A DNA stretch of 64,000 nucleotides, taken from contig MHCJ01000003.1 in assembly GCA_001816585.1 (NCBI GenBank), positions 348,228 to 412,227 of the forward strand. Reading direction: 5' to 3'. Each line of letters begins with the position of its first letter. Position 1 is the first letter of the stretch. Shown one piece after another: positions 34,434-62,711 of the stretch. The translations under genes and the position numbers were made by a program. Source of the DNA: Candidatus Chisholmbacteria bacterium RIFCSPHIGHO2_01_FULL_52_32. GTDB lineage: Bacteria > Patescibacteriota > Microgenomatia > UBA1400 > Chisholmbacteraceae. The notes under the pieces were generated by a model. The model did not search any database and was not told the DNA's origin. It saw only the letters and a program-made list of their open reading frames with translations.

Positions 34434-36437
34434 TTAGGGTGATATGGTTACTTCCCTATCGGAAGCGAGATCGAATTCTTCCCTCCCCTGGGGGGTGGCG
34501 ATTGTATACTTTGCCTTCTTAGATCCTGGCTGTTTTTGTATCAAAAGGCGGTAGTCTTTTCCTTCGTAGGGCACTTCGTAGCGAAAAACCAGCTTTGCCT
34601 GGCCCTGAGGTCGTAAGGTAAAAAACCCTTCAAAGACCGTCTTCCCCAAGTCCTCCTTTGTTTCAACCGGGACTTCTGAGCCAAGCGCCTCCAAAAGCTT
34701 ACTTCCTTTGGGTACGTATAGACGCACGTAGTCCCTAAGGACGCCGTTTAAGCAGAGCTGTCCTGCTTCCAGGTTGCAGTTTGAGGGCGGGAACGGATTT
34801 TGATATTTGACGGTGACCGTTTTTATGATTTTCCCGTCTAAGACTTCGATTGCCTGCTCTGTTTCTTGGGTGGTGAACATGTTGGACTTCGCCCCGGCAA
34901 AATTGGTGTCGTTGAGGTGAAAATAGTCCCCGTCGAACTCGCGAATGCGTCCCGCAACATTAATGAGCTCCGCTGCCTGTTGTTCCTCCGGATCGTAGAA
35001 GTAGAACAGGACATGTTTTTCCGTGATGTCACGAATGATCACCTCAAACAGCTTCGGCCAAATTTGCTTCGGCGCACCGTATGACTTCAGAAGTATGGTC
35101 TGAAGCATCGGCGCCAGCACTCCTTTGCGGTTTTCCCGTTGGGTGGCCAGAGGCTTGTCTGCCAGTAACTCGAGTGCGTAGACAACCTGAGGGCAGTCAC
35201 ACCGCGGGTCATTTTCCGAAGAATATGTCCCGTATCCCGGCACCTCAATCGGTCCTAATACTTCAACGATGTCTTTTAGGACCTTCGTGTCGACTGCCAC
35301 AATGCCGTTGATTTTGGGCTCACCTCTGATCGTGTTGTAGTGGCTTGAAAACAGATCCATCGCCACCTTAAAGTCCGGTGAAAGATTCATGTCCCGAAGG
35401 TTGAATCGGTAAACGAGCGGAAGGTATTTTTGAATCGGCTCCGGCACGGGGAGGCGCGTTGTAAACTTGTCATCCAAGGCATAGATGTCTTCGCTTTTTT
35501 CCTGGAAGACCTTGCCTTTCTCGATCCTTAAGATCGCGTAGGCGGTCATGAATCCTCCGGTTGATCGAAGCTCCGCGTCGTTTTGAAACAGCACCATGTA
35601 CTTGCGTTCCTTTTCTACGCCCATGACTTTGGGGAGCCTCTCCATGGCGGGTTTTGCCTTGGTGACTGCGAACAAGGCATCGTTTGAGACGGTTTGGGCA
35701 AGGCGGATGGTTTCCCCGATGTTTCTCCCTTTCATTTCAAAGGGATATCGGTCGGGATCGATCTTCCCCAATTCTTCACTGACCAGCGTAAGCTTTTGGG
35801 CCACTTCGTCGAGCTTTGGCGTCACCTTATCCAAGGTTTCAACGACTCTCACGATGCGATCTTCTGCCGTCCCTCCCAAAAAACTTCCTTGACCTTTGAA
35901 GCCTAATACGTCCGCGTAGGGTTCGACGGCATCGATGAGGATGTCGGTTGCCTCGACTCCGCTCTTCGAAGCCTTCAGTGCATGATTGCCATCGTGCCAG
36001 TAGCTGCCGACCAATGGGATGAAGCCAGTCCAGCGAAGAGCAGAATACTTCTTCTCCGTTTCAGCGAGTTTCGTTTTCACCTCATCAAGCTTTTGGTTGG
36101 CACTTATCAAGTCCTGCGACTTTGCCGCATCGTATACCGCCTTTGCCGCTCCGGCTGTTTCCCCGGCGCTTGAGATAACTCCCTTGGCTTGAACGGCGAT
36201 AATTGCAGATGCGATCGCAAGAAGAACGAGGAAGACCAGAAGTCCTCCCGCAATGTACTTCAGACGTGGGAATGTTCTTTTGGGTACTGCTTCTCCCATT
36301 GAATCTTGTACTGCAAGGTTCGGACTTTCGTCAGCTTTCGCGTTTTTCTGACGACGTATTATCTTTCGCAAAAATCCCAGCATTTCGGTCTCCGATCCTT
36401 CCATTGTACCAACTTTTTTCCGTCGTTTCCCTACCAC
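34434..36437 (-). CDS. DUF4012-like membrane-anchored protein (N-terminal TM helix plus a large extracytoplasmic domain) at the head of the glycan island
   Basis: N-terminal TM YIAGGLLVFLVLLAIASAIIAV and the core segment KYMVLFQNDAELRSTGGFMTAYAILRIEKGKV, which is typical of DUF4012 proteins. Confidence 0.5.
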   Translation of the reverse strand: MVGKRRKKVGTMEGSETEMLGFLRKIIRRQKNAKADESPNLAVQDSMGEAVPKRTFPRLKYIAGGLLVFLVLLAIASAIIAVQAKGVISSAGETAGAAKAVYDAAKSQDLISANQKLDEVKTKLAETEKKYSALRWTGFIPLVGSYWHDGNHALKASKSGVEATDILIDAVEPYADVLGFKGQGSFLGGTAEDRIVRVVETLDKVTPKLDEVAQKLTLVSEELGKIDPDRYPFEMKGRNIGETIRLAQTVSNDALFAVTKAKPAMERLPKVMGVEKERKYMVLFQNDAELRSTGGFMTAYAILRIEKGKVFQEKSEDIYALDDKFTTRLPVPEPIQKYLPLVYRFNLRDMNLSPDFKVAMDLFSSHYNTIRGEPKINGIVAVDTKVLKDIVEVLGPIEVPGYGTYSSENDPRCDCPQVVYALELLADKPLATQRENRKGVLAPMLQTILLKSYGAPKQIWPKLFEVIIRDITEKHVLFYFYDPEEQQAAELINVAGRIREFDGDYFHLNDTNFAGAKSNMFTTQETEQAIEVLDGKIIKTVTVKYQNPFPPSNCNLEAGQLCLNGVLRDYVRLYVPKGSKLLEALGSEVPVETKEDLGKTVFEGFFTLRPQGQAKLVFRYEVPYEGKDYRLLIQKQPGSKKAKYTIATPQGREEFDLASDREVTISP

Positions 36438-37063
36438 TTACTGAACATCGCGCCCGGAGTCTTTACCAAGATGCGGATATCTTCGAGCATGGACTTTTTT
36501 CTCGCATACTCTGCATCCATTTTTGCCCGGACGTTGAAGGGGACGATGTTCCGCCCTGAAGTCTGCCAAGGGCCCGTGATGCCCGGCTTAATTGAGAGGA
36601 TATTCTTAATCCATTGGCGTGTTTCCGGATATTTGGCTTGTTGTTCTTCAAGCTCCTTTTTCAGATAGGCTCGCGGACCAACCATGCTCATTTCTCCTTT
36701 CAGGACGTTTAACAGTTGAGGGAATTCATCGATCGTTATCGATCGCATGATCCTGCCCAAGGTTGTGATCCGTGGATCGCTCTCGAGTTTCCAATCGCCG
36801 TCCTTGAATTTCTTTAACAGCCGTTTATCTTTTTTGAATAATATTTCATCCGCGTCAGGGACCATGCTTCTAAACTTATACATCCAAAATTCCTTCCCGT
36901 TTTTCCCGACCCTCCGGTGTCGGTAAAAAATCGGTCCCGGAGAATCGAAGGTGATCAAAAGCGGGATGACAATCCAGACGGGCAAGAACAGTGCAGTCAG
37001 AATGAGGGCGAGACATACGTCGAGCAACCGTTTGAATACATCAAAGGACCAGTCTTCATGCAT
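36431..37063 (-). CDS. polyprenyl-phosphate sugar phosphotransferase (bacterial sugar transferase, PglC/WbaP C-terminal-domain type)
   Basis: FDSPGPIFYRHRRVGKNGKEFWMYKFRSM and the downstream PGITGPWQ motif; a single N-terminal TM helix. Confidence 0.8.
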   Translation of the reverse strand: MHEDWSFDVFKRLLDVCLALILTALFLPVWIVIPLLITFDSPGPIFYRHRRVGKNGKEFWMYKFRSMVPDADEILFKKDKRLLKKFKDGDWKLESDPRITTLGRIMRSITIDEFPQLLNVLKGEMSMVGPRAYLKKELEEQQAKYPETRQWIKNILSIKPGITGPWQTSGRNIVPFNVRAKMDAEYARKKSMLEDIRILVKTPGAMFSKW

Positions 37064-37066
37064 AGG

Positions 37067-39255: not shown

Positions 39256-39261
39256 AGGAGG

Positions 39262-39320
39262 GAGTATAGGGTATAGGGTATAGGGTATAGGGTATAGGGT
39301 ATAGGGTTTAGGGTTTAAGG
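39262..39320. repeat. heptamer minisatellite (GGGTATA)x5 (GGGTTTA)x2, a telomere-like G-rich repeat, between two minus-strand GT4 genes
   Basis: Tandem units read directly. Related to the array at 2152-2204 (shared GGGTATA unit). Confidence 0.9.
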
Positions 39321-39323
39321 GTC

Positions 39324-40478
39324 TTAACTCTGATCACGTTTACCGGAATGCGCTATGCCAACCTTTTCATACACGTCGAGAGTCTGCTCGGCAAGTTTCT
39401 TCCAGCTGAACTGCTTCACTTGCTTCCTGCCTGCCTCGATGAGCTTTTTTTGAAGCGGAAGATTTTTGAGGAGTTTTTGCAGCGAGTCGGCGAGATGCAC
39501 TTCCGACCGGGCATCCGTAAACAGGGCTGCATCCTGGTAAATTTCCCTGAAAATCTCAAGTTCGTTTGCAACGACAGGCAGGCCGCACGCCATGGCTTCC
39601 AGGCCGGTCAGTCCGAACCCTTCGGAGAGTGAGGGTTGGACCAGGCAGAGGGCATGTGCGTAGAGAAGTGCCAGATCCTGATCCGGAACAAATCCGATCA
39701 AGCGGACAAACTTCCCTGCATTCCATCTGTCGGTTTCCGCAAGCAATCGATTCAGGAAGACCGTTCTTGCGCTCGCGACAACCAATGTAACCCTGACTCC
39801 GCGTTGACTTAAGAGCTTCACTGCCAACGCCAAACGCAGGATGTTCTTGTGCGGGTACGCGCTGCCCGTGTAGATCACAAATGGCGTCGTGATTCCGTAT
39901 TTTCGGAGAATTTCTGCTTTTTTCCTCCGAGGGAAAAAGATCCTTGCGGGCGCCTCGTAGGTGACACGGATTTTTGCGGGCGCGACCCCGTGACTGTCCG
40001 CAAGCTTTTTTTGTATTACCCTGCTCGGAGCAAAAATCGCTTTTGCTGCCCGCAAGGCATGAGAAACAATCGCCAGATACCCGACATACTTTACGGCATA
40101 GACCAAGGGATTTTGCGTCGTTACCGACAGCCCACGGACATCATGCCAAAGTAGATCGTGGATGGTAACGACGAATGGCTTCCGGTACAGGAGCGGGACA
40201 TTGAAATGCGGCACGTGGAGGAGATCAAGCTTCGCGCGTGAAAAGATTTCTCCCAACAGCCATTGTTCTTCAAAGGAATAGTGGAGAATGTTGCAGGAAA
40301 CGACGGAGAAGTTTTCGGGAAACCGGAGCACTTGATCGTAGGGATGGCGCAAAAACACCGTGTAGCGGTTCCGCCGATCCAAGCTTTTCAGGCTGTCCAA
40401 AAGCTCCATGACGTAGCGGCCCAAGCCCGCGTGTTCTACTCCATAGAGTCTCGCGTCGATTCCAATCTTTAGTGCCAT
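39324..40478 (-). CDS. glycosyltransferase family 4 (GT-B)
   Basis: SEGFGLTGLEAMACGLPVVA motif. Confidence 0.8.
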   Translation of the reverse strand: MALKIGIDARLYGVEHAGLGRYVMELLDSLKSLDRRNRYTVFLRHPYDQVLRFPENFSVVSCNILHYSFEEQWLLGEIFSRAKLDLLHVPHFNVPLLYRKPFVVTIHDLLWHDVRGLSVTTQNPLVYAVKYVGYLAIVSHALRAAKAIFAPSRVIQKKLADSHGVAPAKIRVTYEAPARIFFPRRKKAEILRKYGITTPFVIYTGSAYPHKNILRLALAVKLLSQRGVRVTLVVASARTVFLNRLLAETDRWNAGKFVRLIGFVPDQDLALLYAHALCLVQPSLSEGFGLTGLEAMACGLPVVANELEIFREIYQDAALFTDARSEVHLADSLQKLLKNLPLQKKLIEAGRKQVKQFSWKKLAEQTLDVYEKVGIAHSGKRDQS

Positions 40479-42563: not shown

Positions 42564-44029
42564 AGAGAGCAGTATCGGAGGCTGATGATGGTTATACCAT
42601 CAAGCGCGATAGATGGCTTGCACCGTTCGATCAGATATTTGGTTTCATCGTCAAGGTTCACCGAAACGTAGTCCGTGGCGCCTTGGTCGATTTTATCCGC
42701 AATCCCTCCCCCGATCGGCCATCCCTGACGGTTCGTTTGATAGAGAAAAGCAGTATCACCTTGGTATGGCGCTATGACTTTCGCATTTTTGGGAAGGATT
42801 CTGTCTGCCGCAATGCCTGCTTTGACGATCTCCGGATGGTTAATGTTGAAATAATCCCTGATGTGGAACCAGGAAAAGCCAAACCAGAAAACAAGTGTGG
42901 TTCCAATTAGGATCCAAGTTACGGGTCTTATGACCATTTGTTTCGGGAGACCGAGCATCCAATCGGCACCGATTGCCGCAAATATCACAAGCGGAGGGAT
43001 GATGAAGATCTGGTAGTAATCATGGGTCACATTCCCGGTTGCAAAGACCGCAAGGTAGGCAAGCATTCCGACTAACCACCAGTGAAACAGAAAGGGCAAT
43101 TTTCCTTTGGGTTTCCGCATCAGCCCGAGCCCGAATGGCAAAAGACCCCAGAAGCCAAAAATGAGCCTTCCTATCCGCTCGGCAAAGATCCAGCGGAAGA
43201 ATGCCGGCCGGAAGCGGATCCCTGATCCGTTCAGGAGCCAGGTATTTGCCGGAATCCCTTCCGGAAACCCGGTTGCCCAAAACCGCCAGGCAATGAAAGG
43301 GACGAGCGCGGCCGCCGTATAAAGGTAGAGAGCTTTTCTTCTGAAAAGGCCGATCCCCCATTTCTTGTAAGCTGCGTACGCCATCGGAAATACCATAAAG
43401 ATAAAAAATGGCTTTAGAAGGAGGGCGATTGCCGCCGCAATCACGGAGATCGCCATCTGAAGCCATCGCTCTGTATCAAGCCAGCGAAGGAAGCAGTAGA
43501 AGGCAAGGAGAGAAAAGAGGAGAAAAGGTACTTCAGGCAAAATGGTTCGATGATAGTAAATGTTGTAGGGAAGAAAGGCAAACAGGACGGACGAGAGAAT
43601 GGCAACCCTCTGCCCCAGGTATTTTTTTGTCAATGTATAGACAACCAGAATCGCCAGAATCGAAATCGCGATCGAGGTCAAGCGGCCCCAAACTTCAAGG
43701 GAGAAAACGTCGATCCAGTTAAATGTCACTGCGGTGAGGGCATTTATGATCGGGAATTCAACGAAACGCCAACCTTGAGGATTGTCTTTTCCGGAGGGGA
43801 TCGATGAGAGATCATCGTATCTCGGATGCAGGAGGTCTATCCCTTCGCTCACAAAGCGGCGGGTCACCGAAGAGGTATCGGCCTGACGCCAGGAATGCCA
43901 GTCTGCAAGCGGTTCATTCAGTCTGTATGTTCTTGCCAAAAAGGCTAGAACAACAATTATCGAAACAAAAATGTACTCTGCGATTTTTTGGGTATTAATA
44001 CTACTCATATTGTGGTCTTTTCCGGCCAA
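42560..44029 (-). CDS. PMT_2/ArnT-like GT-C membrane glycosyltransferase
   Basis: Polytopic; first loop carries WHSWRQADTSSVTRRF (the H.WRQ.DT...RNF-type motif of COG1807/PMT_2 proteins). Confidence 0.6.
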   Translation of the reverse strand: MAGKDHNMSSINTQKIAEYIFVSIIVVLAFLARTYRLNEPLADWHSWRQADTSSVTRRFVSEGIDLLHPRYDDLSSIPSGKDNPQGWRFVEFPIINALTAVTFNWIDVFSLEVWGRLTSIAISILAILVVYTLTKKYLGQRVAILSSVLFAFLPYNIYYHRTILPEVPFLLFSLLAFYCFLRWLDTERWLQMAISVIAAAIALLLKPFFIFMVFPMAYAAYKKWGIGLFRRKALYLYTAAALVPFIAWRFWATGFPEGIPANTWLLNGSGIRFRPAFFRWIFAERIGRLIFGFWGLLPFGLGLMRKPKGKLPFLFHWWLVGMLAYLAVFATGNVTHDYYQIFIIPPLVIFAAIGADWMLGLPKQMVIRPVTWILIGTTLVFWFGFSWFHIRDYFNINHPEIVKAGIAADRILPKNAKVIAPYQGDTAFLYQTNRQGWPIGGGIADKIDQGATDYVSVNLDDETKYLIERCKPSIALDGITIISLRYCSL

Positions 44030-45620
44030 GTTTCACTGCCGCAAATAGTATCCCCATCAGCGCCCAAAAGATGTAGGCAACCTTCGAGGCTTCAAACACG
44101 TCTATATAGATGCCGTTTACAAGCATTCCTACGATTGCACCTCCGATTCCTCCGACCAATGCAAACACGAACGGGTCTTTGATCACCTGTCTGTTTTTCC
44201 AAACGGTGAAAATGGAAAATCCGAGGATACCAAAGAAACTTACAAAACCAAGAAGCCCGGTTTCCCCGAGGGCCCGTAAGTAGTCATTGTCGGTTGACTC
44301 GGCTTCCGTGAACTCGGTCTCTTGTACTTTTAAAAGGGTTGAGTAGCCGGAACCAAGCAGAGGATTCTTGAGAAACCCAGCGATTGCTCTTGGCCAAAGG
44401 GCATCGAAGCGAATGGCGGAGGATAGCCCGAAGGTGAAGGCGGCCGCTGAATAGGTTCTCGGTTTCCCGGCAAGTGAGGCGACGGCAGAATCCGTCCCCG
44501 CCGACAAGGTTGCTTCCGGAAACGCCAGGGGGATATTTTCAAAAACATCGGGAGGAAGTTCTCGAGGCTCAAGAGGAACAGGCGGTTGATCCGTTTCCGT
44601 ATAAACCAGGGCCAGATCTCCTGTAATTTCACTGCCTGGCGGGATCCTCTCCTTTTTCAAGATTTCGTAGAGGACGTATTCCTTTATCTGGTCCGTTTTG
44701 AAGAAATGGGCAAACCGCTGGGAAAGATCACCAAACAGCAGCATTCCAAGAATGCTTATCGTGATCACCCCTACCCAGCGTGTCATCCCCCATTGAATCG
44801 AGTGGCGGAGTGATATGAAGAATACGACTAACGAAATGGCGATGAGGTACGCGATGAAGGAGGCTCTCGAGGCCGTTAACAACAAGGAAACTAATCCGGC
44901 ACCGAATACAACCCACAGTGGCTTGGTCTTGACTGTGGTTGAGGCACTGAGCATGAGGCTTCCGATGATTGAAAGCGCTATTACACTAAACGCGGCGAAG
45001 TCGTAGTGCCCCGCGAACGTCGATGGTACCCGGGCGTGTTCCGTCAGGACGAGCCGCCAGCCTTTGGAGAATTCCCGGTTCATTGTCGAGTACACCGGCC
45101 AGGCAAAATACTTTTGTCCAAGACCGTAGAGCATGAGTAAAACGACAACAATTGCCAGGATCGTTGTAAACCTCCGTAATTCCTTGAAAGACTTGACGGC
45201 TGAAAAGAAGATGAAGGCAAGTGACATGTACTCGATTCTTCTCAGCCAATGGAGGAAGAGCTTGGCCACGTGGAGGCGTTCCAGGGGGACGGTTTTCGTG
45301 AGGAAAAGGGCGGATACGGAAGAGAGAAGTCCGATAAAAAGATACAACAGGACGGGAATCAGGAGCGGATTGTTTTTCAGGGATACTTTTTTCCGGAGAA
45401 GTTGGACCAGCCAAAGAAGACCCACACCGAAAACCAGAATATCCTCAAGTCTCAAGCGAACGATATAGCCGGGCAGGATATCCACCAGCGGCCATTTCGG
45501 GTAGAGCGGGATAAACACCAACAGGAATCCGGTGGCCAACTCAAGGATGTGCTCGTCAAGCCATCCAAAAAGCTTCTTTATAGGCTGCATAGGCGTCTTT
45601 CCTGCCTTGAAGTATACCAA
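44001..45620 (-). CDS. O-antigen ligase/polymerase-like (Wzy_C domain) polytopic membrane protein
   Basis: About 12 TM helices, TASRASFIA, a large extracytoplasmic loop, then LWPRAIAGFLKNPLLGSGYS typical of WaaL/Wzy-type proteins. Confidence 0.5.
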   Translation of the reverse strand: MVYFKAGKTPMQPIKKLFGWLDEHILELATGFLLVFIPLYPKWPLVDILPGYIVRLRLEDILVFGVGLLWLVQLLRKKVSLKNNPLLIPVLLYLFIGLLSSVSALFLTKTVPLERLHVAKLFLHWLRRIEYMSLAFIFFSAVKSFKELRRFTTILAIVVVLLMLYGLGQKYFAWPVYSTMNREFSKGWRLVLTEHARVPSTFAGHYDFAAFSVIALSIIGSLMLSASTTVKTKPLWVVFGAGLVSLLLTASRASFIAYLIAISLVVFFISLRHSIQWGMTRWVGVITISILGMLLFGDLSQRFAHFFKTDQIKEYVLYEILKKERIPPGSEITGDLALVYTETDQPPVPLEPRELPPDVFENIPLAFPEATLSAGTDSAVASLAGKPRTYSAAAFTFGLSSAIRFDALWPRAIAGFLKNPLLGSGYSTLLKVQETEFTEAESTDNDYLRALGETGLLGFVSFFGILGFSIFTVWKNRQVIKDPFVFALVGGIGGAIVGMLVNGIYIDVFEASKVAYIFWALMGILFAAVKLGRKRPQYE

Positions 45621-46443
45621 ACACCAGCATTCGAAGCAGAGCGCCGGTCTTTAAAAGCACGCGTAATACGGGAGACTCCCATTTCGGCTTGTGCTTTGCG
45701 AATACGTACTTTACGGCTTTAAATTCTCCTAACCAGGCCGGTTTTTGGGCTCCGCCGCTTGACTTCTGACCGTAATGGATTATTTTTCCTTTCGGGGTGA
45801 TTGCGACCTCAAATCCGGCCCGCCTGGCTCGGATACAGTATTCCACATCCTCTCCGTACATGAAGATTTCCTCATCAAGGAGCCCGATCTTGTCAATCAC
45901 ACCCTTTCTTATCATCATCGCCGTTCCCCCAACCCATCCGGTTCGGTGCTCATTGAGATATGCCTTCGAATCGTTGACGTGATACGGCCAGAGGTACTTT
46001 CCCAACCACGGGATATCATCGATGAATAACATCCAAAAAGCGATGTTTGATAACCTGGGAAGAAAGCCTCCCTGAGGCTGAATTGACCCGTCCGGGTTAT
46101 TCAGTTGACAACTGGCGATTCCGACCTTCGGACTGCTCTTCATAAACTCTAAAAGACTTCCGATCGCATCATCACAAACTTTCGTATCGGAGTTGAGAAG
46201 CATGACGAACTCCCCTTTTGCTGCTCCTATCCCCTTATTGTTGGCTTTGGCAAAGCCGAGATTCTGCCTGTTTTCAACCAGGACCACTCCGGGGAACTTC
46301 CGTCTTACCATATCGGGTGATCCGTCGGATGAAGCATTGTCAATCACGAGAAGCTCCCAGGTTGGCTTGAGGCGGATTGATGCGATTGTTTCCGCGAGCA
46401 ACTCTTTTGTGTTGTAACTGACGATGATGATGGAAAGTTCCAT
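45556..46443 (-). CDS. glycosyltransferase family 2 (GT-A)
   Basis: LSIIIVSYNTKELLAETIASI, VIDNASSDGS, LLNSDT. Confidence 0.8.
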   Translation of the reverse strand: MELSIIIVSYNTKELLAETIASIRLKPTWELLVIDNASSDGSPDMVRRKFPGVVLVENRQNLGFAKANNKGIGAAKGEFVMLLNSDTKVCDDAIGSLLEFMKSSPKVGIASCQLNNPDGSIQPQGGFLPRLSNIAFWMLFIDDIPWLGKYLWPYHVNDSKAYLNEHRTGWVGGTAMMIRKGVIDKIGLLDEEIFMYGEDVEYCIRARRAGFEVAITPKGKIIHYGQKSSGGAQKPAWLGEFKAVKYVFAKHKPKWESPVLRVLLKTGALLRMLVFGILQGRKDAYAAYKEAFWMA

Positions 46444-46455
46444 GATCTTTTACAC

Positions 46456-46635
46456 GAGTTTCGCACTCAATAACCTCGTAATGAGGAGAGCGCGGAACAA
46501 ATTTCGCCGGCCCGCATAGGCCAGTCCGCCAGCTGGCGGACTGGTATGAAGTACAACAAACACGTGCTAATCTAGACTGCACCGTTTGCGACCAAGAAAT
46601 TTTCGTTACGCGATCTCCAAAATAACGCGAAACTC
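46456..46635. repeat. intergenic repeat element copy 1 (about 180 bp; 9-bp TIR GAGTTTCGC/GCGAAACTC; central 24-nt palindrome at 46521-46544)
   Basis: Near-identical to copies at 48057-48230 and 49996-50169. Read and aligned by eye. Confidence 0.85.
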
Positions 46636-46640
46636 GTGCT

Positions 46641-48113: not shown

Positions 48114-48230
48114 AGGCCAGTCCGCCAGCTGGCGGACTGGTATGGACTACAACGAAAACTTGCTAATCATGACTGCACCATTTGCGACCAAGAAATTTCC
48201 GTTACGCGATCTCCGAAGTAAGCGAAACTC
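48057..48230. repeat. intergenic repeat element copy 2 (174 bp; TIR GAGTTTCGC/GCGAAACTC; palindrome 48117-48140)
   Basis: Aligned with copies 1 and 3. Confidence 0.85.
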
Positions 48231-48236
48231 GATGTA

Positions 48237-49938: not shown

Positions 49939-49995
49939 ACAGTCTTTACAGTATACCCCACTTTTCCCTGGGAAGGGATTTTTTTTATCCTGCAT

Positions 49996-50169
49996 GAATT
50001 TCGCATTCAATGACATCAGAGGAGAGCGCGGAACAAATTTCGCCGGTCGCATAGGCCAGCCCGCCAGCTGGCGGGCTGGTATGAAGTACAGCAAACACGT
50101 GCAAATCATGTCTGCACCGTTTGCGACCAAGAAATTTCCGTTACGCGATCTCCGAAGTAAGCGAAACTT
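49996..50169. repeat. intergenic repeat element copy 3 (174 bp; TIR GAATTTCGC/GCGAAACTT; palindrome 50056-50079 with compensatory T>C / A>G changes)
   Basis: Aligned with copies 1 and 2. The palindrome ccagcccgccagctggcgggctgg has both arms changed compared with ccagtccgccagctggcggactgg. Confidence 0.85.
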
Positions 50170-50193
50170 CAGTCCTGTATACTCATCCTACCG

Positions 50194-51306
50194 ATGAAGC
50201 GTGTACAGAGCGCGTTCGTTTTGGTTCTGGTTTCAGTCATTGTATTGCGGATGGCTTTCATCTTTCTCCGCACCCCTTCTGTTTCAATTGACCATGAACG
50301 CCTTCGGTCCGTCTGGCTCCATTCCCAATACAACCTTGGGAAAGGATATGAGTTCTTCGGAAACATGCCAGACGAAGACCTGTATGCTTTTTCCGCACTC
50401 GAGTACGTCTCCGGGAAAAACCCGGTCCAGGTCAACTACGAAAATCCCCCGCTCGCAAAATACCTGCTCGGTATTTCTTACCTTGTATTCGGCAATATCC
50501 TTGTGGTTCAATTCATCGCCAGTTTTGGGATTCTTCTCCTCACGTATTTGCTCACCCGCCATCATTTCCTCTTGTCGCCCATTGCCTTCCTCCCTCCTCT
50601 TCTATTAGTGGTTGACCCATTGTTTGTGAAGGCCAGCACAACCGTTAATTTGGACCTTATTCAATTGTTCTTTGCGTTGGTTGCTCTCTACCTTCTCACC
50701 CTGCGACAACGGTCCCCCTTCCTTCTGTTCTTTCTCGGTTGTGCTATCGGCGGGATCATGGCCAGTAAGGTGTTCTTCGTTGGGCTTCTCCTGCTTGTCT
50801 ATTCCAGTTTTGTTCTCTGGCTCAATCGCACACCCAGATTGTTGAGCTCGATTGTACCGGTTTTCATCGGATGTTTGCTGGTCTATCTTGGGTCCTATGC
50901 GGTCTATTTTGCCTACCGTTCTCCTTCGGATTTCCTCAAGCTCCATATCGATATCATCCGTCTGTACCGCTCGTATCTTCCCGAGTATCCTTGGTTTGAG
51001 ATTTGGAGAATCTTACTGGTTGGGCAATGGCGTACGTGGTTTGCCAAGCCTTCGATTCAACCCGTTGCCGAATATTGGCTAGGCTGGCCTATTGCGGCCG
51101 TTCTTTCGGGGAGTCTGCTTTTATCAAGGCGGGCTTTACGGCTTCCTTGGCCGCCGTCAACCATACTTTTGGGGTGGGCGCTGGCCTATCTTCTGTTCCA
51201 GTCCGTCCATGTGGTTTTTCCCCGGTACCTTCTCCTGGTTTTACCTATTCTTTATGCTCTTTCTGCGATTCGCATCTCGACTTTGCCTCCCAAGATTCCT
51301 TCGTAG
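50194..51306 (+). CDS. compact PMT-like GT-C membrane protein (the only plus-strand gene inside the array)
   Basis: Polytopic, 370 aa; first loop has PDEDLYAF (DE motif) and YENPPLAKYLLG (the HPPLAK-type motif of protein O-mannosyltransferase-like GT-C enzymes). Confidence 0.5.
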   Translation: MKRVQSAFVLVLVSVIVLRMAFIFLRTPSVSIDHERLRSVWLHSQYNLGKGYEFFGNMPDEDLYAFSALEYVSGKNPVQVNYENPPLAKYLLGISYLVFGNILVVQFIASFGILLLTYLLTRHHFLLSPIAFLPPLLLVVDPLFVKASTTVNLDLIQLFFALVALYLLTLRQRSPFLLFFLGCAIGGIMASKVFFVGLLLLVYSSFVLWLNRTPRLLSSIVPVFIGCLLVYLGSYAVYFAYRSPSDFLKLHIDIIRLYRSYLPEYPWFEIWRILLVGQWRTWFAKPSIQPVAEYWLGWPIAAVLSGSLLLSRRALRLPWPPSTILLGWALAYLLFQSVHVVFPRYLLLVLPILYALSAIRISTLPPKIPS

Positions 51307-52391
51307 ACTTTGAGCGTTTGCCGGGCGGTTTCGTCCCATGAGAACTTTTCTGCTTGGGCGATACCTTTGGCGCGGAGTTCTTCACTTCTTTCCAAAGCTA
51401 CCCGTATTCCAAAGGCAATCGCCTCCGCGCTTTCGGGATTAACGGTTGCCGCTGCACTGCCGGCGATCTCAGCTAAGCTCCCGCGGTCGGATGTCAGAAC
51501 CGGACAGCCAACTGCCATCGCTTCAAGGACGGGCAAACCGAATCCTTCATAAAGCGAAGGATAGAGAAATAAGGAGGCACCGGCGTAGAGCGCCGGAAGA
51601 TCCTTGTTCTCAACAAATCCAATTGGCTTAACACCGGGTACTGGCGTTATCTTCTCTCCCCAGCCGAAGCGGCCGGCAATCACAAGCTCCTGATCCAATT
51701 GTAAGATACTGTAGGCTTCAATGGTGCGCTGGATGTTTTTCCGCGGTTCATGAGTGCCCACGCTTAACAGGTACTCTTTCTGAATCCCGTATTTCTCTTT
51801 TACTTCGCGGACGGTCGTATTCCTTGTGTTCTCCATCGCCTTCCGAAACTCGGAGAACTCCGGAGGTGCGGCCAAATACACCACCACGACTTTCTTTTCA
51901 GGAATATTGAGGATTTCAACGATATCCTGTTTGGTTGCTACCGAATCGGCGATGACTGCCGCTGCTTCTTTTTTTACCCAACGCAGTCCGGCCTTGTACG
52001 CTGCTCTGGTTGCCGGAAGATGTTGCTTGGGAAATTTAAGCGGGGTGAGGTCATGGATAGTGGTGACGATTTTTGCCTTCTTTGTCGGAGGCTGAATGTA
52101 ATCCCAGGTATGGACAATGTCGCAGCTCCCTGTCAGAGTTTCAACCGGCAGAATATGCAGCATGTTCCAGAGAAGCTCCATCAGCTTCGGCGGAAAGGGT
52201 AACTTTTTTTTGGCCATGGTTAGCTTTCCGAAACTGCGGAGCGAGTAACCAAAGGGGATGAAGGTATGTTCCTTTCCGTATAAAAGGAGTTTCGGGACAA
52301 GGTTTCGGTAGTAGGTCCCGACACCCGATCCCTCATAAATCGTGGCGGTCACGTCGATTGCGATTTTCATGGTTTCAGTTCGTAATGCCAA
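51252..52391 (-). CDS. glycosyltransferase family 4 (GT-B)
   Basis: YEGFGLPVLEAMAVGCPVLTS motif. Confidence 0.8.
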   Translation of the reverse strand: MALRTETMKIAIDVTATIYEGSGVGTYYRNLVPKLLLYGKEHTFIPFGYSLRSFGKLTMAKKKLPFPPKLMELLWNMLHILPVETLTGSCDIVHTWDYIQPPTKKAKIVTTIHDLTPLKFPKQHLPATRAAYKAGLRWVKKEAAAVIADSVATKQDIVEILNIPEKKVVVVYLAAPPEFSEFRKAMENTRNTTVREVKEKYGIQKEYLLSVGTHEPRKNIQRTIEAYSILQLDQELVIAGRFGWGEKITPVPGVKPIGFVENKDLPALYAGASLFLYPSLYEGFGLPVLEAMAVGCPVLTSDRGSLAEIAGSAAATVNPESAEAIAFGIRVALERSEELRAKGIAQAEKFSWDETARQTLKVYEGILGGKVEMRIAERA

Positions 52392-53758
52392 ACGAGGACC
52401 CCGTTAAAGCCCTTTTCCTCTGTTTTTTGGTACCCGTTGTCATTAAGCGTTTCTACCAAGAGATCCTTCGGATCGAAGATCTCTGCTACATATTTTACAA
52501 GGAAAACGTGCTTTGGGTTATTGTGAAGATTGAGGGTGCTTGGATCCTCGACCTTAACCTTCCCGTTGTTATAGAACTCAAATCCTGCGGCTTGGGCGAG
52601 GTTTGGGAAAAGGACGAGGCTTTGATCTTTAAATACGAAAACGAAAGAGGCGGCAGACCGCCAGTCTTCCCGATGAAATCGAGCAATTCCCAAATAGGCT
52701 GCCGTCGAGATGATGTTGGTCAGTAGGAGTATCGCGATCAGCGGTCCTCTGAAGATGAAGCGGAATTTCCCCAGGCCATAGGAGAGCATAAGGTAAAACG
52801 CAGGCAGCACAAACAGAAATCGGAAGTAGGAGAAAATCGGGACCTTCAAACCAACCAAGGCCCCGGCGGCAAGCGGAACCGCCAGCCAGCCTTTGATTAC
52901 ATGAAGATGCTTTCCTTTTTCCATCAGGGTTCTTGCGAGACCCAAGCCTGCAACAACCGTTGGAAGCGACAGGACAAGGGCATACAGGAGATTGTTGTCA
53001 ATCGAGACGCGGCCGACGAGAAATTTGACCGGTACAAGAAGCGCGGATTTCAGCGTCAGTCCTCCAACCACTTCTCCCCAAGCGGGGAAGTTTGCCGCGG
53101 TTGTAATGCCTTGCCTTACTTGTTCAGCCAGCATCGGCCACCATGGGAAAAGCAAAAACAGCGCCAATGCGGTCATCCCCGGCGTCACCACAAAAAAGAA
53201 CGGGAGAAGGAGCCAGGGTTGGTAATCGGAAAGAAGCATCAATACGAATGAACTAAGAAACAGCAGTTTGTTCTTTCGGGAGGAGTCTTTGCGCAGATTG
53301 AGAAGGGTAAGCACAGCCGAAGCTGTCGTTAGGGCTGCAAGGGCGTACATCCGGGCCTCTTGCGAGTAGTAGACGTGAAGGCCGGAGGTTGCCAGAAAAA
53401 GCGCAGCCAGGCGGGCGAAAGAGGCATTTTCCTTCCAGAGCTTCTGACCGATCTTGTAGACAACCCAAACGGTCAGTACACCAAAGACGACGGAAGGGAG
53501 TCTGGCGCTCATTTCCGAGACGGGTACGGCTTTTAGCCAAAGCCAAAGGATGATGTGATAGAGGGGCGGATGAAAGTCGCCTTTCGTGTAATTGAGGATA
53601 AGATCAGTAAAGCCTCTGTCACGGGCAGCTGTGACGTTAATTGCCTCATCAAGCCAAAACGATTGGTTTATGGCAATCATCCGCACTAGGAGAGCCAGGG
53701 CCAGGATGCAACCGATTACCAGGTCTGTTTTTTTCTTTTCTTCTTCTTTATTTGGCAC
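52367..53758 (-). CDS. PMT_2/ArnT-like GT-C membrane glycosyltransferase. Proposed GTG start at 53758 just after the upstream GT2 stop; the longer ORF 52367..54181 overlaps that GT2 in another frame.
   Basis: FWLDEAINVTAARD (DE motif) and GDFHPPLYHIILWLW (HPPL motif), about 12 TM helices. There is no in-frame ATG between 54181 and the first TM helix other than far-upstream ones inside the neighbouring gene. Confidence 0.65.
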   Translation of the reverse strand: MPNKEEEKKKTDLVIGCILALALLVRMIAINQSFWLDEAINVTAARDRGFTDLILNYTKGDFHPPLYHIILWLWLKAVPVSEMSARLPSVVFGVLTVWVVYKIGQKLWKENASFARLAALFLATSGLHVYYSQEARMYALAALTTASAVLTLLNLRKDSSRKNKLLFLSSFVLMLLSDYQPWLLLPFFFVVTPGMTALALFLLFPWWPMLAEQVRQGITTAANFPAWGEVVGGLTLKSALLVPVKFLVGRVSIDNNLLYALVLSLPTVVAGLGLARTLMEKGKHLHVIKGWLAVPLAAGALVGLKVPIFSYFRFLFVLPAFYLMLSYGLGKFRFIFRGPLIAILLLTNIISTAAYLGIARFHREDWRSAASFVFVFKDQSLVLFPNLAQAAGFEFYNNGKVKVEDPSTLNLHNNPKHVFLVKYVAEIFDPKDLLVETLNDNGYQKTEEKGFNGVLVWHYELKP

Positions 53759-54587
53759 GACTTCTCCCGAAGAGCATACTGATGATTCCGAGATTGGTTG
53801 CGAAATCCACCACGACTTTAAAGGGTAAGAATGACGGGGATTTGTACCGGATGGCCTTGACAAGACCCACAACCAAGGAGAGTGGGAGTGAGGCTCTGAC
53901 GAGGGCGAGAAGACTGCCAACGATCCCGAGTTTGTAAGGTCTTTTTGCCATCCAACGGGCTTGGGAAAATACCTCCCGGAGCGTCTCCGGGTTGCTGTGG
54001 TAGAAGACTGCCCCTTCGGCATGCGTTGCGGGGATGCCGAGTTTTTGGGAAAGCGTCCAGTCATCGGTGTAGCCTGCCTTCGGGTTAAACCCTCCGGCTT
54101 CAAGAAACTTCTCCTTGCGGATGGCACGAAATACCGGCTGGGTATCCGGATAATTCTTCGGATGCATTCTCCCCTCTGCAAAACCTCTGTTTAAGGACCA
54201 ATAGCGCGCAAAGCGGTTATTCAGGTTGGAAACGATTTCTTCTTTGCTGAAGGTGCCGACTGTTTTTCCGTCTCGGATCGGTGCGCTGAGGCGGTCGATA
54301 AATCTGCGGTCAAACGTCATATCCGCATCGACAAATACCAGGATTTCTCCGCGGGCTTTCATTGCCCCTTTGTTTCTGGCTGCACCCGGCCCACGATGAT
54401 CCTGTTTGACGAGCCGAATGCCTTTTTGGGTTTTGAGTATCTTTTCCGTCCTGTCGGTCGAGCCGTCGTCCACCACTATTATTTCCAGAGGTTTGTAGGT
54501 TTGGTTGTTGAGGGAGGATAGACATTCCCCGATCACCTTCTCCTCGTTGTATGCCGGAATCACGACTGAAACGAACGGGTTATTCAC
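53748..54587 (-). CDS. GT2 glycosyltransferase of the polyprenol-phosphate sugar synthase (DPM1/Ppm1-like) type
   Basis: VSVVIPAYNEEKVIGECLSSL, IIVVDDGSTDRT, FVDADMT (DxD). About 280 aa, typical size for polyprenyl-P-mannose/glucose synthases that supply GT-C enzymes. Confidence 0.75.
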   Translation of the reverse strand: MNNPFVSVVIPAYNEEKVIGECLSSLNNQTYKPLEIIVVDDGSTDRTEKILKTQKGIRLVKQDHRGPGAARNKGAMKARGEILVFVDADMTFDRRFIDRLSAPIRDGKTVGTFSKEEIVSNLNNRFARYWSLNRGFAEGRMHPKNYPDTQPVFRAIRKEKFLEAGGFNPKAGYTDDWTLSQKLGIPATHAEGAVFYHSNPETLREVFSQARWMAKRPYKLGIVGSLLALVRASLPLSLVVGLVKAIRYKSPSFLPFKVVVDFATNLGIISMLFGRSRAK

Positions 54588-54663
54588 GGATTTACCTCTC
54601 TCGAGTACGCCGTTGCAGCAAAAGATGGTACTGTTGAGACCATGTTACCACCAAAGATAGCTA

Positions 54664-55845
54664 TCACTTTCCATCCTCAAGAGAGGTGAGGATGCGTTGA
54701 TACGCCTGTTTGACCTTCGTCCAGCGGAATTTGGAAAAGGCGGAGCCGATGGCCGCTTTTGTTTTTTCTTCATTCTCGCTTCCGAGGGTCCGGCTAAGCG
54801 CATTTCGGTAGGCAAGGCTTACCGTCGGATCACAGAATACCCCGGCTCCTTCGAGCATCCAGCGATTCCGCGGCGTGTCCGTGGTAACGACAAGTTTGCC
54901 TGCCGCCAAGCTTTCAAGAAATACCATGGGTGAATTCTCCTGAGGGTCAGAGGGAAGAGTTACCAGATCACAGGCGGCGTAGAAGGAAGGCATACGATTA
55001 TGGGAAACACTCGTCAGTAAAAAACGCTTTCCCAGTTTTTTTCTTCCCAAAGCGAGAAGTTTATCCTCAAGCGGCCCTTGCCCCAAAACAAGCAGGCTTG
55101 CGTCCTTCAACCCTGAAACCGCCTCGATTGCAAGCTCAATGCGTTTGTAGGGAACCAGCGCTGCCGGACAGAGGATGATCGGTTTTGATAACGGGAGGGT
55201 TTCCGGTTTGGCCGCCTGATATGGCCTATCGTCTATTGCATACGGGATAAGCTCCACCCGAGTCCACGGACAGGTGCTTTTTGCCCATTCGTAGGCAGGC
55301 ATCGTGGTTGCCACAAAGACATTTGGGTGGAGATAGAGGTTGAAGCGTTCATCCCAACCCGGTCCGGAGTGGCCGGTTGTAAGGATTTTGTAATTCCCGA
55401 AGGGTGGGCAGAGCATGAGAAGAAAGAGCTGCCAAAATCCGTTCATGGGGATGACAACCTCGAAACTTTCTCTGGTGAGCCTTGGTATTACTTTCCGGGT
55501 GAAGGAAAATATTGCCCGATTCGCTTCGTCCAAGAATAGTCTTTTGAGAAGATTATCTGGAAATCGAGCCGGAAAGGACGATTGAGGCTGGACGGCAGGG
55601 CTCTCGATCCTGTTCACGGTAATGTGCTCTTCACTGGTCTTCTGTCCTGCTTGGAAAAAGACGACCTCATGGTTTTCCGAGAGGCGGTTTGCAAGTTCAT
55701 GGCTAAAAGATTCTGCACCCCGTTGGTTGATGCCTCCGTAGATATTTAAGAAAGCAATCTTCATGGAACGATCTTTCTTTTCAGTGCCCGTAACGGAGTT
55801 GCGACCAGCGCCATAAGTCTGTCTTTCGTTGAGAACTTTATCCAA
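54664..55845 (-). CDS. glycosyltransferase family 4-like (GT-B); start probably the internal MKIAFLN
   Basis: GT-B fold, C-terminal VFLESLAAGKLVV motif. Confidence 0.65.
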   Translation of the reverse strand: MDKVLNERQTYGAGRNSVTGTEKKDRSMKIAFLNIYGGINQRGAESFSHELANRLSENHEVVFFQAGQKTSEEHITVNRIESPAVQPQSSFPARFPDNLLKRLFLDEANRAIFSFTRKVIPRLTRESFEVVIPMNGFWQLFLLMLCPPFGNYKILTTGHSGPGWDERFNLYLHPNVFVATTMPAYEWAKSTCPWTRVELIPYAIDDRPYQAAKPETLPLSKPIILCPAALVPYKRIELAIEAVSGLKDASLLVLGQGPLEDKLLALGRKKLGKRFLLTSVSHNRMPSFYAACDLVTLPSDPQENSPMVFLESLAAGKLVVTTDTPRNRWMLEGAGVFCDPTVSLAYRNALSRTLGSENEEKTKAAIGSAFSKFRWTKVKQAYQRILTSLEDGK

Positions 55846-56567: not shown

Positions 56568-56568
56568 T

Positions 56569-61687: not shown

Positions 61688-61748
61688 TGTACACTATAAT
61701 GAATTTGCATATTTAAGTAAGATGAGTTAATATCAGCCATTCTTAAAT

Positions 61749-62711
61749 ATGAATAAAACAGCTTTAGTCACCGGGGGCGCAGGTTTTATCGGATCGCATT
61801 TATGCGATCGTCTGCTTTCGGAAGGAATGCAGGTTATCTGTGTTGATAACTTCATTACCGGAAATCGGGAAAATGTTTCCCATCTCCTCACGAATAAGAA
61901 TTTTCGATTGATTGAAGCGGATGTTTCCCAACCGACGGAGAAGTATCTTTCAAATATCCCTCGCGTCGACGAGATCTTCCACTTGGCAAGCCCGGCAAGC
62001 CCGCGCGGTTACCAGGATGCACCGGTAGAAACGTACCTTGTCAATTCGATCGGTACCCATTACCTGCTTCTGTTTGCGAAGAAGGCAGGCGCGAAGTTTC
62101 TGTTTGCTTCAACGAGCGAGGTCTACGGAGATCCGGAGAAGCATCCGCAACGGGAAGATTACTGGGGAAATGTCAATCCCCATGGAGTGAGGGCTTGTTA
62201 CGATGAAAGCAAACGGTTCGGAGAGATGGCAACAATGGTTTTCTTTCGGCAATTCGGGATGGATGTGCGTATGGTTCGTATTTTCAATACCTACGGACCG
62301 CGCATGGATCCGCGGGACGGCAGGGTGATCCCAAACTTCTTAACGCAGGCGCTTTCGGGAAAGCCGGTCACGGTGTACGGGGACGGTTCGCAAACCCGGA
62401 GTTTCTGCTATGTGTCCGACATGGTTGATGGGATTTTACGGGCGATGCAATTGCCAAAAACAAAAGGATTGGTTGTGAACATTGGGAATCCTGACGAATA
62501 CACGATGTTGACTCTTGCTAAGAAAATCAAACAAGCTCTCGGGAGTTCTTCCCGTATTATCTTCCGCAACCTTCCCGAGGATGACCCGACCCGCCGGAAG
62601 CCGGATATCTCACGGGCGAAACGGGTCTTAGGCTGGTCGCCGAAGGTTACCCTCGACGAGGGCCTTGTTCCTACCATCGCCTACTTCAAGAAGCAACTGC
62701 AACACAGCTAA
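61749..62711 (+). CDS. UDP-glucuronate decarboxylase (UDP-xylose synthase) / NAD-dependent epimerase-dehydratase
   Basis: [52 protein letters not shown] (catalytic YxxxK), [10 protein letters not shown]. Close to the UXS consensus along its whole length. Confidence 0.85.

Follow-up and report, generated by a model that had tools for sequence, protein, structure and literature searches.

The stretch of DNA analysed here, a window of 64,000 nucleotides (nt), belongs to Candidatus Chisholmbacteria, a groundwater bacterium from a Candidate Phyla Radiation (CPR)/Microgenomates lineage with a reduced genome, and carries between positions 36431 and 62711 a glycan cluster of 23 genes and ~26 kb, delimited from an open reading frame (ORF) map, Pfam scans and Joint Genome Institute (JGI) gene calls. 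The cluster encodes one priming transferase of the Bac_transf family, one ManC-like guanylyltransferase, six GT4 and four GT2 glycosyltransferases, one hexapeptide acetyltransferase, one Polysacc_synt protein (Wzx), one Wzy_C protein, one dehydrogenase-like protein of 247 amino acids (aa), one extended short-chain dehydrogenase/reductase (SDR), and six membrane glycosyltransferases of the GT-C type, here called GTC1 to GTC6. These are known enzyme families in an unusual combination, which joins a Wzx/Wzy_C pathway to a multi-GT-C extracytoplasmic glycosylation. The minus strand holds 21 of the 23 genes, mostly overlapping or abutting, and the plus strand holds GTC3 (50194-51306) and the SDR gene (61749-62711). 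The genes are the following, with bit scores for Pfam families unless another source is named:

36431-37063, minus: priming polyprenyl-phosphate hexose-1-phosphate transferase, WbaP C-terminal type, 210 aa, one transmembrane (TM) helix; Bac_transf 198 bits
37067-38176, minus: ManC-like mannose-1-phosphate guanylyltransferase without isomerase domain; NTP_transferase and ManC_GMP_beta-helix
38146-39255, minus: GT4a; Glycos_transf_1 102 bits; orthologues in relatives at 47-69%
39324-40478, minus: GT4b; Glycos_transf_1 95 bits
40469-41377, minus: GT2a, soluble, no TM helix; Glycos_transf_2 92 bits
41370-42563, minus: GT4c; Glyco_trans_1_4 92 bits
42560-44029, minus: GTC1, WRQxDT motif; PMT_2 57 bits, PMT 42 bits; overlaps the Wzy_C gene by 29 nt
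44001-45620, minus: Wzy_C-family polytopic membrane protein; Wzy_C 55 bits (cut-off 31.7)
45556-46443, minus: GT2b; Glycos_transf_2 84 bits
46641-48113, minus: GTC2, ArnT-like GT-C; PMT_2 68 bits, PMT 50 bits
48237-48842, minus: hexapeptide-repeat acetyltransferase, WcaF-family-like; Hexapep 61 bits; NCBIfam WcaF family 108 bits, under cut-off
48826-50052, minus: GT4d; Glycos_transf_1 116 bits
50194-51306, plus: GTC3, minimal 370-aa GT-C, PPL-KY motif; assigned from homologues and an AlphaFold model
51252-52370, minus: GT4e (JGI start); Glycos_transf_1 95 bits
52367-53758, minus: GTC4, WLDE and HPPL motifs; PMT_2 36 bits; overlaps GT2c by 11 nt
53748-54587, minus: GT2c, predicted membrane-associated inverting GT2; DD, DxD, DD and QxRW motifs; C-terminal helices 222-273
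54664-55764, minus: GT4f (JGI start); Glycos_transf_1 64 bits
55761-56567, minus: GT2d, divergent; Glycos_transf_2 56 bits
56569-57834, minus: Wzx-type (MOP superfamily) flippase; Polysacc_synt 84 bits, Polysacc_synt_3 83 bits
57806-59323, minus: GTC5, MDEE motif; PMT_2 39 bits
59295-60038, minus: short nucleotide-sugar-dehydrogenase-like NAD-binding protein, 247 aa; UDPG_MGDP_dh 23 bits, just under cut-off; NCBIfam NDP-sugDHase 55 bits
60035-61687, minus: GTC6, DUF2142/PMT_2 GT-C, PDEQxH motif, long first loop; DUF2142 59 bits, PMT_2 45 bits
61749-62711, plus: extended SDR on nucleotide sugars (dehydratase, decarboxylase or epimerase), divergently transcribed; Epimerase 192 bits

A preliminary description of the window, drawn up from the sequence alone, had already named the priming phosphotransferase, the ManC-like guanylyltransferase, four GT2 enzymes, an acetyltransferase (which belongs to the hexapeptide-repeat family), a Wzx-like flippase and a Wzy/WaaL-like protein, and the Pfam matches bear out each of them, as the identity of the organism does its surmise of a reduced-genome host. 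Its figures of about 25 genes and seven GT4 enzymes come down to 23 and, by Pfam, six, and its picture of co-oriented genes holds for the 21 on the minus strand and fails for GTC3 and the SDR. In NCBIfam, the priming transferase matches EPS_sugtrans (238 bits) and WbaP (214 bits), each under its cut-off, and the ManC-like enzyme matches GMP_PMI with 238 bits, spanning profile positions 3-352 of 467. The dehydrogenase-like gene had been taken as truncated; however, its orthologues have the same length, at 64-65% identity, which rules out a truncated UGDH-like pseudogene and makes it a conserved 247-aa protein. Similarly, the enzyme previously labelled UXS is a generic extended SDR, for which the best NCBIfam match is dTDP-glucose dehydratase (140 bits) and all NCBIfam matches fall under cut-off. 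The acetyltransferase, judged by its family, probably acts in sugar O-acetylation. The window also falls within a 352,653-bp contig (L001) of JGI metagenome 3300002502. The proteins of the cluster are deposited as hypothetical proteins under Candidatus Chisholmbacteria bacterium RIFCSPLOWO2_01_FULL, and no published description of the cluster was found in the literature on CPR/Patescibacteria/Chisholmbacteria glycosyltransferases.

The six GT-C proteins

The Pfam family PMT_2 (PF13231) has a gathering score of 26.1 bits, which is passed by five of the six membrane proteins with 36-68 bits, one of them also passing DUF2142 and two also passing PMT. GTC3 itself has no match in Pfam or NCBIfam. 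Among 30 GTC3 homologues at 33-65% identity, 15 match PMT and ten match PMT_2, and the AlphaFold model of the protein is a confident one (predicted local distance difference test, pLDDT, 93.2; predicted template-modelling score, pTM, 0.93), in which short helices lie between the first and second membrane helices (TM1 and TM2) and the predicted fold resembles those of PimE, ALG3, ALG12, and AftA. On account of these homologues and this model, GTC3 is taken as a real GT-C of 370 aa without a soluble domain. The six proteins are GT-C enzymes, as the preliminary description had proposed from the same motifs at the same positions and as the hidden Markov model searches uphold for five directly and for GTC3 through its homologues and model. 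By analogy with their families, they would use polyprenyl-phosphate-linked sugar donors.

In the orthologue alignments of the five syntenic GT-Cs, an acidic position past TM1 shows no substitution. It corresponds to D51 of GTC1, within the WRQxDT motif (11 of 11 orthologues), D60 of GTC3 (20 of 20), D37-E38 of GTC4 (14 of 14), D43-E44-E45 of GTC5 (five of five), and D62-E63 of GTC6 (eight of eight). In the case of GTC2, residues 41-362 align with Cupriavidus ArnT (5ezm, E 4.6e-17), placing D63-E64 opposite the DE of ArnT loop 1. In the crystal structure of ArnT, this loop is periplasmic. The GT-Cs have K/R-rich N-termini before TM1 and acidic first loops in a crude hydropathy scan, which fits an outward-facing loop. 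The search of PDB sequences returned nothing usable for GTC1, GTC4, GTC5, GTC6, or the Wzy_C protein.

The six proteins had been called paralogs, which does not hold in the sense of local duplicates: BLASTP among them is mostly non-significant, the best pair being GTC2-GTC4 (25% identity, E 1.6e-9), and this rules out recent duplication. Profile-profile comparison with hhalign ties every GT-C to the ArnT-like GTC2 at 92.7-99.1% probability (GTC1 98.6%, GTC4 99.1%, GTC5 98.8%, GTC6 92.7%), and GTC6 to GTC4 at 95.8%. Judging from these profiles, the six GT-Cs are deep branches of the ArnT/PMT-like GT-C group, and not local duplicates.

The GTC3 family is sizeable: out of 1.84 billion representatives, 403 clusters match at E<=1e-30. 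Its distant members include fusions, among them P0259, P0272, and P0291 (920-954 aa), with an N-terminal PTPS_related polytopic domain (PF10131). Another distant member, P0312 (695 aa), ends in MecA_N and PBP_dimer, the pedestal of class B penicillin-binding proteins (PBPs), a domain arrangement that hints at a link of the GTC3 family to cell-wall synthesis. In the JGI annotation GTC3 was overlooked (L001 20742-21404), two short ORFs of 113 and 92 aa being called on the opposite strand instead, and in NCBI it is a hypothetical protein. A contig from another sample (L027, Ga0209342_10311786) is 100% identical to window positions 50098-51497 except for a 37-nt deletion in GTC3 (~50612-50650), which shifts the reading frame and is either a population variant inactivating GTC3 or an assembly artefact.

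Gene order and neighbourhood in related genomes

Related loci were taken from the contigs of homologues and from a scan of one genome per species, the latter giving 17 loci. They represent Chisholmbacteria, Woesebacteria, Gottesmanbacteria, unclassified Patescibacteria, and a number of metagenome-assembled genomes (MAGs) labelled Pseudomonadales/Gammaproteobacteria, labels that fit poorly with the cluster content of those loci. Most of the gene order recurs in the relatives, with protein identities from ~75% down to ~25%, as GT4a-GT4b-GT2a-GT4c-GTC1-Wzy_C-GT2b-(GTC2)-AT-GT4d-GTC3-GT4e-GTC4-GT2c-GT4f-GT2d-Wzx-GTC5-(247-aa)-GTC6-SDR, where AT is the acetyltransferase. The comparison of locus content across related genomes, which the preliminary description had envisaged, thus finds the order kept in Chisholm-, Woese-, and Gottesmanbacteria, and its conservation across Microgenomates argues for one pathway. 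GC content is 0.47-0.53 within the cluster and outside it alike in the window, so the cluster is not a compositional island, and this even composition together with the synteny across the lineage rules out a horizontally acquired one. Contrary to the earlier label of an island, the genes form an operon-like cluster that belongs to the lineage core of CPR Microgenomates.

The Wzy_C protein and GTC1 form a single polypeptide of ~1030-1057 aa in five loci (L009, L016, L017, L018, and L023), and this fusion is evidence that both work together. GTC4, for its part, directly follows GT2c in every locus that resolves both. GT2c is itself conserved in >120 database clusters at >=53% identity over nearly full length, and holds DD, DxD, DD, and Q-x-R-W motifs and, towards its C-terminus, three helices of which one or more are hydrophobic, features by which it is assigned as a membrane-associated inverting GT2 whose acceptor may be lipid-linked, or polyprenyl phosphate itself. 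It is the sole candidate in the cluster for a GT2 of the GtrB/CsbB/DPM1 type, a role favoured by its constant pairing with GTC4 and by its hydrophobic C-terminal helices. A search of PDB sequences gives chondroitin polymerase and GalT1 as top matches, with DPMS at 2.5e-10 and ArnC at 5.5e-6, and a profile search of the same sequences gives chondroitin polymerase at 1e-33, DPMS at 1.6e-17, PcManGT at 4.4e-15, ArnC at 7e-12, and GtrB at 2e-11. In NCBIfam, EpsD scores best (96 bits), with dolichyl-phosphate hexose transferase (45), PpgS (35), and ArnC (33) behind it and none above cut-off. The preliminary description had placed a DPM1/Ppm1-like GT2 directly upstream of a GT-C gene; the position is right, since GT2c directly precedes GTC4, while the DPM1-like label is not supported, the protein ranking nearer sugar-to-sugar GT2s. 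Its wider label of polyprenol-phosphate-sugar-synthase-type GT2s likewise lacks support, and no donor synthase of the Ppm1 or UbiA type was recognised in the window.

GTC2 was not seen in the closest relatives (L006-L008 and L012) with the search thresholds used. Homologues with 45-50% identity occupy the same position in L030 and L031, where they lack the ~190-nt repeat described below, which makes GTC2 a variably retained cluster member and rules out the view, prompted by its absence from L006-L008, of a private insertion bounded by repeats. GTC3 points the same way as its neighbours in L009, L016-L018, L030, and L031, and the other way in Chisholmbacteria and their closest relatives, and in Woesebacteria-type loci the cluster seems to be rearranged into two blocks.

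Some of the related loci hold additional genes. In L006 (17919-18338, plus strand) and L007 (17745-18155, plus strand), the opposite strand carries, between Wzx and GTC5, a gene for an uncharacterised membrane protein of 136-139 aa, which has no tblastn match in the window and is a candidate for a small flippase or accessory subunit. In L008 (19409-21092), ABC2_membrane and ABC_tran/Wzt_C genes take the place of the 247-aa protein and GTC6, so the cluster family mixes Wzx- and ABC-type export components. Directly upstream of GT2c there is an unannotated 218-aa gene in L030 (2306-2962) and a HAD-family phosphatase gene in L031, which also has a second HAD-family gene after GTC1 (HAD genes at L031 3062-3676 and 15628-16263). 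These extra genes of L030 and L031 may encode phosphatases that act on sugar phosphates or lipid phosphates as part of the donor pathway.

Downstream of the cluster and on the same strand lie a gene for a DUF4012 membrane protein, RecO, a class II aminoacyl-tRNA synthetase, and then a complete division/cell-wall (dcw/mur) cluster. The preliminary description had listed DUF4012 among the families to be looked for, and it was found adjoining the cluster:

34434-36437, minus: DUF4012 membrane protein, 667 aa, one N-terminal TM helix; DUF4012 91 bits; overlaps the priming transferase gene by 7 nt

The dcw/mur cluster (window 4964-30673, minus strand) lies ~4 kb downstream of the DUF4012 gene and contains MraW, a PBP, MurC/D/E/F-type ligases, MurA, MurB, MurG, MraY, Glu racemase, GlmS, a GlmU-like protein, FtsW, FtsQ/A/Z, and a second SEDS protein. 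DUF4012 has been reported as enriched in CPR and Gram-positives, and found in an exopolysaccharide (EPS) locus of Bifidobacterium (PMC6744442). On the other side, ~2.6 kb past the right end of the window (L001 5322-7058), there is a gene for a NodU/CmcH-type carbamoyltransferase (Carbam_trans_N/C), which could modify the glycan.

The proposed pathway and its alternatives

The cluster is probably a two-stage, undecaprenyl-phosphate-based assembly line for one complex cell-surface glycoconjugate. This proposal starts from the enzyme families, one fold each for two key proteins, the invariant acids of the catalytic loops, the synteny, the Wzy_C-GTC1 fusion, and the GT2c-GTC4 pair; from these we infer the donors, the acceptor, the order of the steps, and a single product for all parts. 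In the first stage, at the cytoplasmic face, and going by family membership, a WbaP-type phosphoglycosyl transferase would prime the lipid carrier, and six GT4 and three or four GT2 enzymes would extend it from nucleotide sugars. GDP-mannose would be supplied by the ManC-like enzyme, other sugars would be tailored by the SDR and the short dehydrogenase-like protein, and O-acetyl groups would be added by the WcaF-like acetyltransferase. In the second stage, the single Wzx would flip the lipid-linked glycan to the outer face, where the Wzy_C enzyme, presumably in physical coupling with GTC1, would polymerise or ligate it, and where GTC3, GTC4, GTC5, and GTC6 (together with GTC2 here) would each add sugars from lipid-phosphate-linked donors. 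The fixed pair of GT2c and GTC4 could then consist of a donor synthase and its transferase. The core of the preliminary description, an extracytoplasmic glycosylation layered on a Wzx/Wzy-type pathway, is reasonable in this light, while several of its details were wrong and its link to a donor synthase is unproven.

Several points weigh against this assembly line. Every functional statement in it rests on homology, and eleven cytoplasmic transferases are a high number for one repeat unit. The window ORFs scanned show no Pfam match to a Wzz/PCP chain-length regulator, the DUF4012 membrane protein occupying the flanking position, and none to a small flippase family of the GtrA type (or SMR/MATE). 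The Wzy_C domain covers polymerases, ligases, and O-oligosaccharyltransferases alike, and the protein that carries it here has no NCBIfam match and no PDB sequence match to separate polymerase from ligase. Finally, GT2c ranks nearer chondroitin polymerase, GalT1, and hyaluronan synthase than DPMS, ArnC, and GtrB, and none of the GT2s of the cluster is demonstrably a polyprenyl-phosphate sugar synthase. In regard to the small flippase, a Wzx-type flippase has been accepted in place of GtrA, and one flippase may serve several GT-A/GT-C pairs (PMC8035078). The Wzx-type flippase of the cluster could be substituting for GtrA in the same manner.

The lack of a Wzz match and the number of transferases would both suit a different outcome, somewhat unlikely on balance, in which the product is a protein-linked O-glycan. 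The Wzy_C protein would then be an O-oligosaccharyltransferase of the PglL/WsaB type that transfers the glycan en bloc onto S-layer or pilin proteins, and some of the GT-Cs would be PMT-like protein O-mannosyltransferases or would extend the protein-bound glycan. The Wzy_C domain is common to WaaL, PglL, and S-layer O-oligosaccharyltransferases, the ~11 cytoplasmic transferases suit a large defined oligosaccharide better than a repeat unit, and GDP-mannose would be available from the ManC-like enzyme. In addition, CPR cells are regarded as similar to Gram-positives and as having pili and sortases (PMC6744442). However, the gene for an acceptor protein is absent from the cluster, the MIR domain of eukaryotic PMTs is found by Pfam in none of the six GT-Cs, and the neighbourhood of DUF4012 and cell-wall genes fits a wall polymer equally well. 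An unlikely scheme, in the style of mycobacterial lipoarabinomannan (LAM) or arabinogalactan, would have the cytoplasmic enzymes make a lipid-linked primer only, with the GT-Cs polymerising the main chain and its branches outside, supplied with one or two sugars, such as mannose, on polyprenyl phosphate. The mycobacterial cell-wall cluster likewise has five or six divergent GT-Cs, the set of ManC-like, GT4, and GT-C proteins mirrors ManC/PimA/PimB/PimE/Mpt, the fold of GTC3 resembles the mycobacterial and ALG enzymes named above, and the distant GTC3 kin fused to PBP pedestal domains or to another GT-C-like domain hint at a tie of the family to wall synthesis. On the other hand, the presence of Wzx, Wzy_C, and ten Leloir-type transferases points to a substantial pre-assembled unit, the donor synthases of such a scheme were not recognised in the window, and the carbohydrate-binding modules of the Emb/AftD polymerases were found by Pfam in none of the GT-Cs.

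It is highly improbable that the cluster is made of separate systems merely lying side by side, for instance a Wzx/Wzy polysaccharide pathway and decorations of a lipid- or teichoic-acid type. The uneven presence of GTC2 among relatives, the inversion of GTC3 relative to its neighbours in Chisholmbacteria, and the apparent two blocks of the Woesebacteria-type loci would be expected from such an assortment. However, the GT-C genes are interleaved and overlapping with the GT4, GT2, Wzx, and Wzy genes, the interleaving is retained across lineages at 30-45% identity, and the priming transferase, the Wzx, and the Wzy_C protein, each present once, are interleaved with the GT-C genes as well. This interleaving, the overlaps, and the fusion of Wzy_C with GTC1 in five loci weigh against mere co-location, as does the presence of a single priming transferase and a single flippase.

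In a further reading, quite improbable as it stands, the cluster would follow a logic like that of N-glycan synthesis in the endoplasmic reticulum (ER). It would build one defined lipid-linked oligosaccharide (LLO) of ~15 or more sugars through ~11 Leloir-type steps inside, a MOP-family flip, and five to six GT-C steps outside, followed by en bloc handover to protein or wall by a Wzy_C-type transferase complexed or fused with a GT-C. If true, the Microgenomates CPR would have in this ER-like route a core envelope pathway common to the whole lineage, and possibly a determinant of host attachment. The parallel with the eukaryotic pathway (ALG7, ALG1/2/11, RFT1, DPM1/ALG5, ALG3/9/12/6/8/10, OST) is one of analogy only, and the final transferase here is of the Wzy_C type, and not STT3. 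The lumenal ALG enzymes have been reported as eukaryote-specific, with only distant PMT-like relatives in prokaryotes (PMC4973528).

The closest functional concept among known systems is that of three- or multi-component transmembrane glycosylation, described for GtrA/GtrB/Gtr*, CsbB/GtcA/YfhO, the Csd pairs, and GacI/J/K/L (PMC11127046, PMC8035078). As in those systems, the first membrane helix of the GT-Cs is followed by an acidic motif, a GT2 gene stands fixed beside a GT-C gene (here GT2c and GTC4), and the whole is layered on a Wzx/Wzy-type or wall-polysaccharide pathway. Contrary to them, the cluster has five or six GT-Cs and one candidate partner GT2, which is not GtrB/CsbB-like by sequence or fold ranking, and has no GtrA-type protein among the ORFs scanned; its GT-Cs are core and syntenic instead of accessory seroconversion modules, and one of them is fused to a Wzy_C enzyme in relatives. 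In streptococci, a rhamnose-polysaccharide locus has been described with a DUF2142 polytopic protein beside GT2 genes and a Wzx-like flippase (PMC9746298). The cluster shares this set of proteins with the rhamnose-rich wall-polysaccharide loci of streptococci and lactococci, from which it differs in having no rhamnose synthesis genes, no ABC-transporter route in this genome, and far more GT-Cs. With regard to ArnT (GT83), GTC2 reaches 93 bits against the NCBIfam ArnT model, where the cut-off is 567, and the window has no ArnA/B/C/D/E/F genes. Furthermore, CPR bacteria are thought to have no Gram-negative envelope (PMC6744442), which makes a lipid A target unlikely.

The preliminary description had regarded six GT-Cs in one locus as uncommon, which is fair, although not unprecedented. 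Mycobacteria likewise have five or six GT-Cs gathered in their arabinogalactan/LAM gene region, so that the number is uncommon and not unique. That system (EmbA/B/C, AftA-D, PimE, MptA-C, Ppm1, and DPPR synthase) differs from the cluster in phylum and envelope, in the Wzx and Wzy_C proteins present here, in the Ppm1/UbiA-type donor synthase that was not recognised here, and in the cluster GT-Cs themselves, which at 370-550 aa are small and have no carbohydrate-binding modules. Detailed study of multi-GT-C assembly lines has centred on mycobacteria, in which they serve as a drug target, and on the eukaryotic ER. With a third, independent example it would be easier to see how GT-Cs are organised and where their donors come from, and to the known cases this one adds a Wzy_C-GT-C fusion, a minimal GT-C of 370 aa, and the lack of a recognisable donor synthase in the window.

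The CPR/Patescibacteria account for much of bacterial diversity; their cells live attached to others, and their capacity for biosynthesis is minimal. To our knowledge, nothing is known of the chemistry of their surface glycans. The longest contig carrying the genes of the cluster measures 1,158,385 bp, which sets the genome at ~1.16 Mb, and ~2% of it is spent on one conserved 23-gene glycan pathway adjoining cell-wall genes. The cluster also offers concrete and compact targets for heterologous reconstruction.

Repeats in the cluster

The three gaps that had been described as filled with repeats are real, and correspond to three copies of a ~190-nt repeat, whose columns average 78% identity and whose core hardly varies. 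These copies, and a separate tandem array, lie at the following positions:

46443-46639, minus: repeat copy A, ~190 nt, long hairpin with a 24-nt palindrome
48037-48234, minus: repeat copy B
49976-50174, minus: repeat copy C, in the divergent GT4d/GTC3 spacer
39264-39314, no strand: heptamer tandem repeat, GTATAGG x7.3, in the 68-nt GT4b/GT4a spacer

The ~190-nt repeat folds into a long hairpin (-60 kcal/mol for the consensus) tipped by a perfect 24-nt palindrome, CCAGTCCGCCAGCTGGCGGACTGG. These are its only copies in the window, no Rfam family matches it at E<=1, and none of the related clusters contains it. Two other metagenome contigs carry diverged copies, after radical-SAM and CoA-binding-like genes in L028 and after an ABC-2 transporter gene in L029. 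Its lack of an Rfam match, its absence from related clusters, and its copies after unrelated genes rule out a conserved leader or riboswitch, and the repeat looks like a dispersed intergenic element of the kind known as repetitive extragenic palindromes or miniature inverted-repeat transposable elements (REP/MITE-like).

The repeat also affects where two of the genes begin. The ORF starts at 48113 (GTC2) and 50052 (GT4d) fall inside copies of the repeat, and the ATG conserved within it has probably given both ORFs spurious 5' extensions. Homologues of GTC2 are 450-459 aa long, and its true start is probably ~35 codons downstream of 48113; orthologues of GT4d align from residue 38, and its true start is probably near 49995, ~35 codons in from 50052.

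The heptamer array, with 97% matches among its units, fills most of its spacer, and may serve as a slipped-strand site within an operon for surface glycans.

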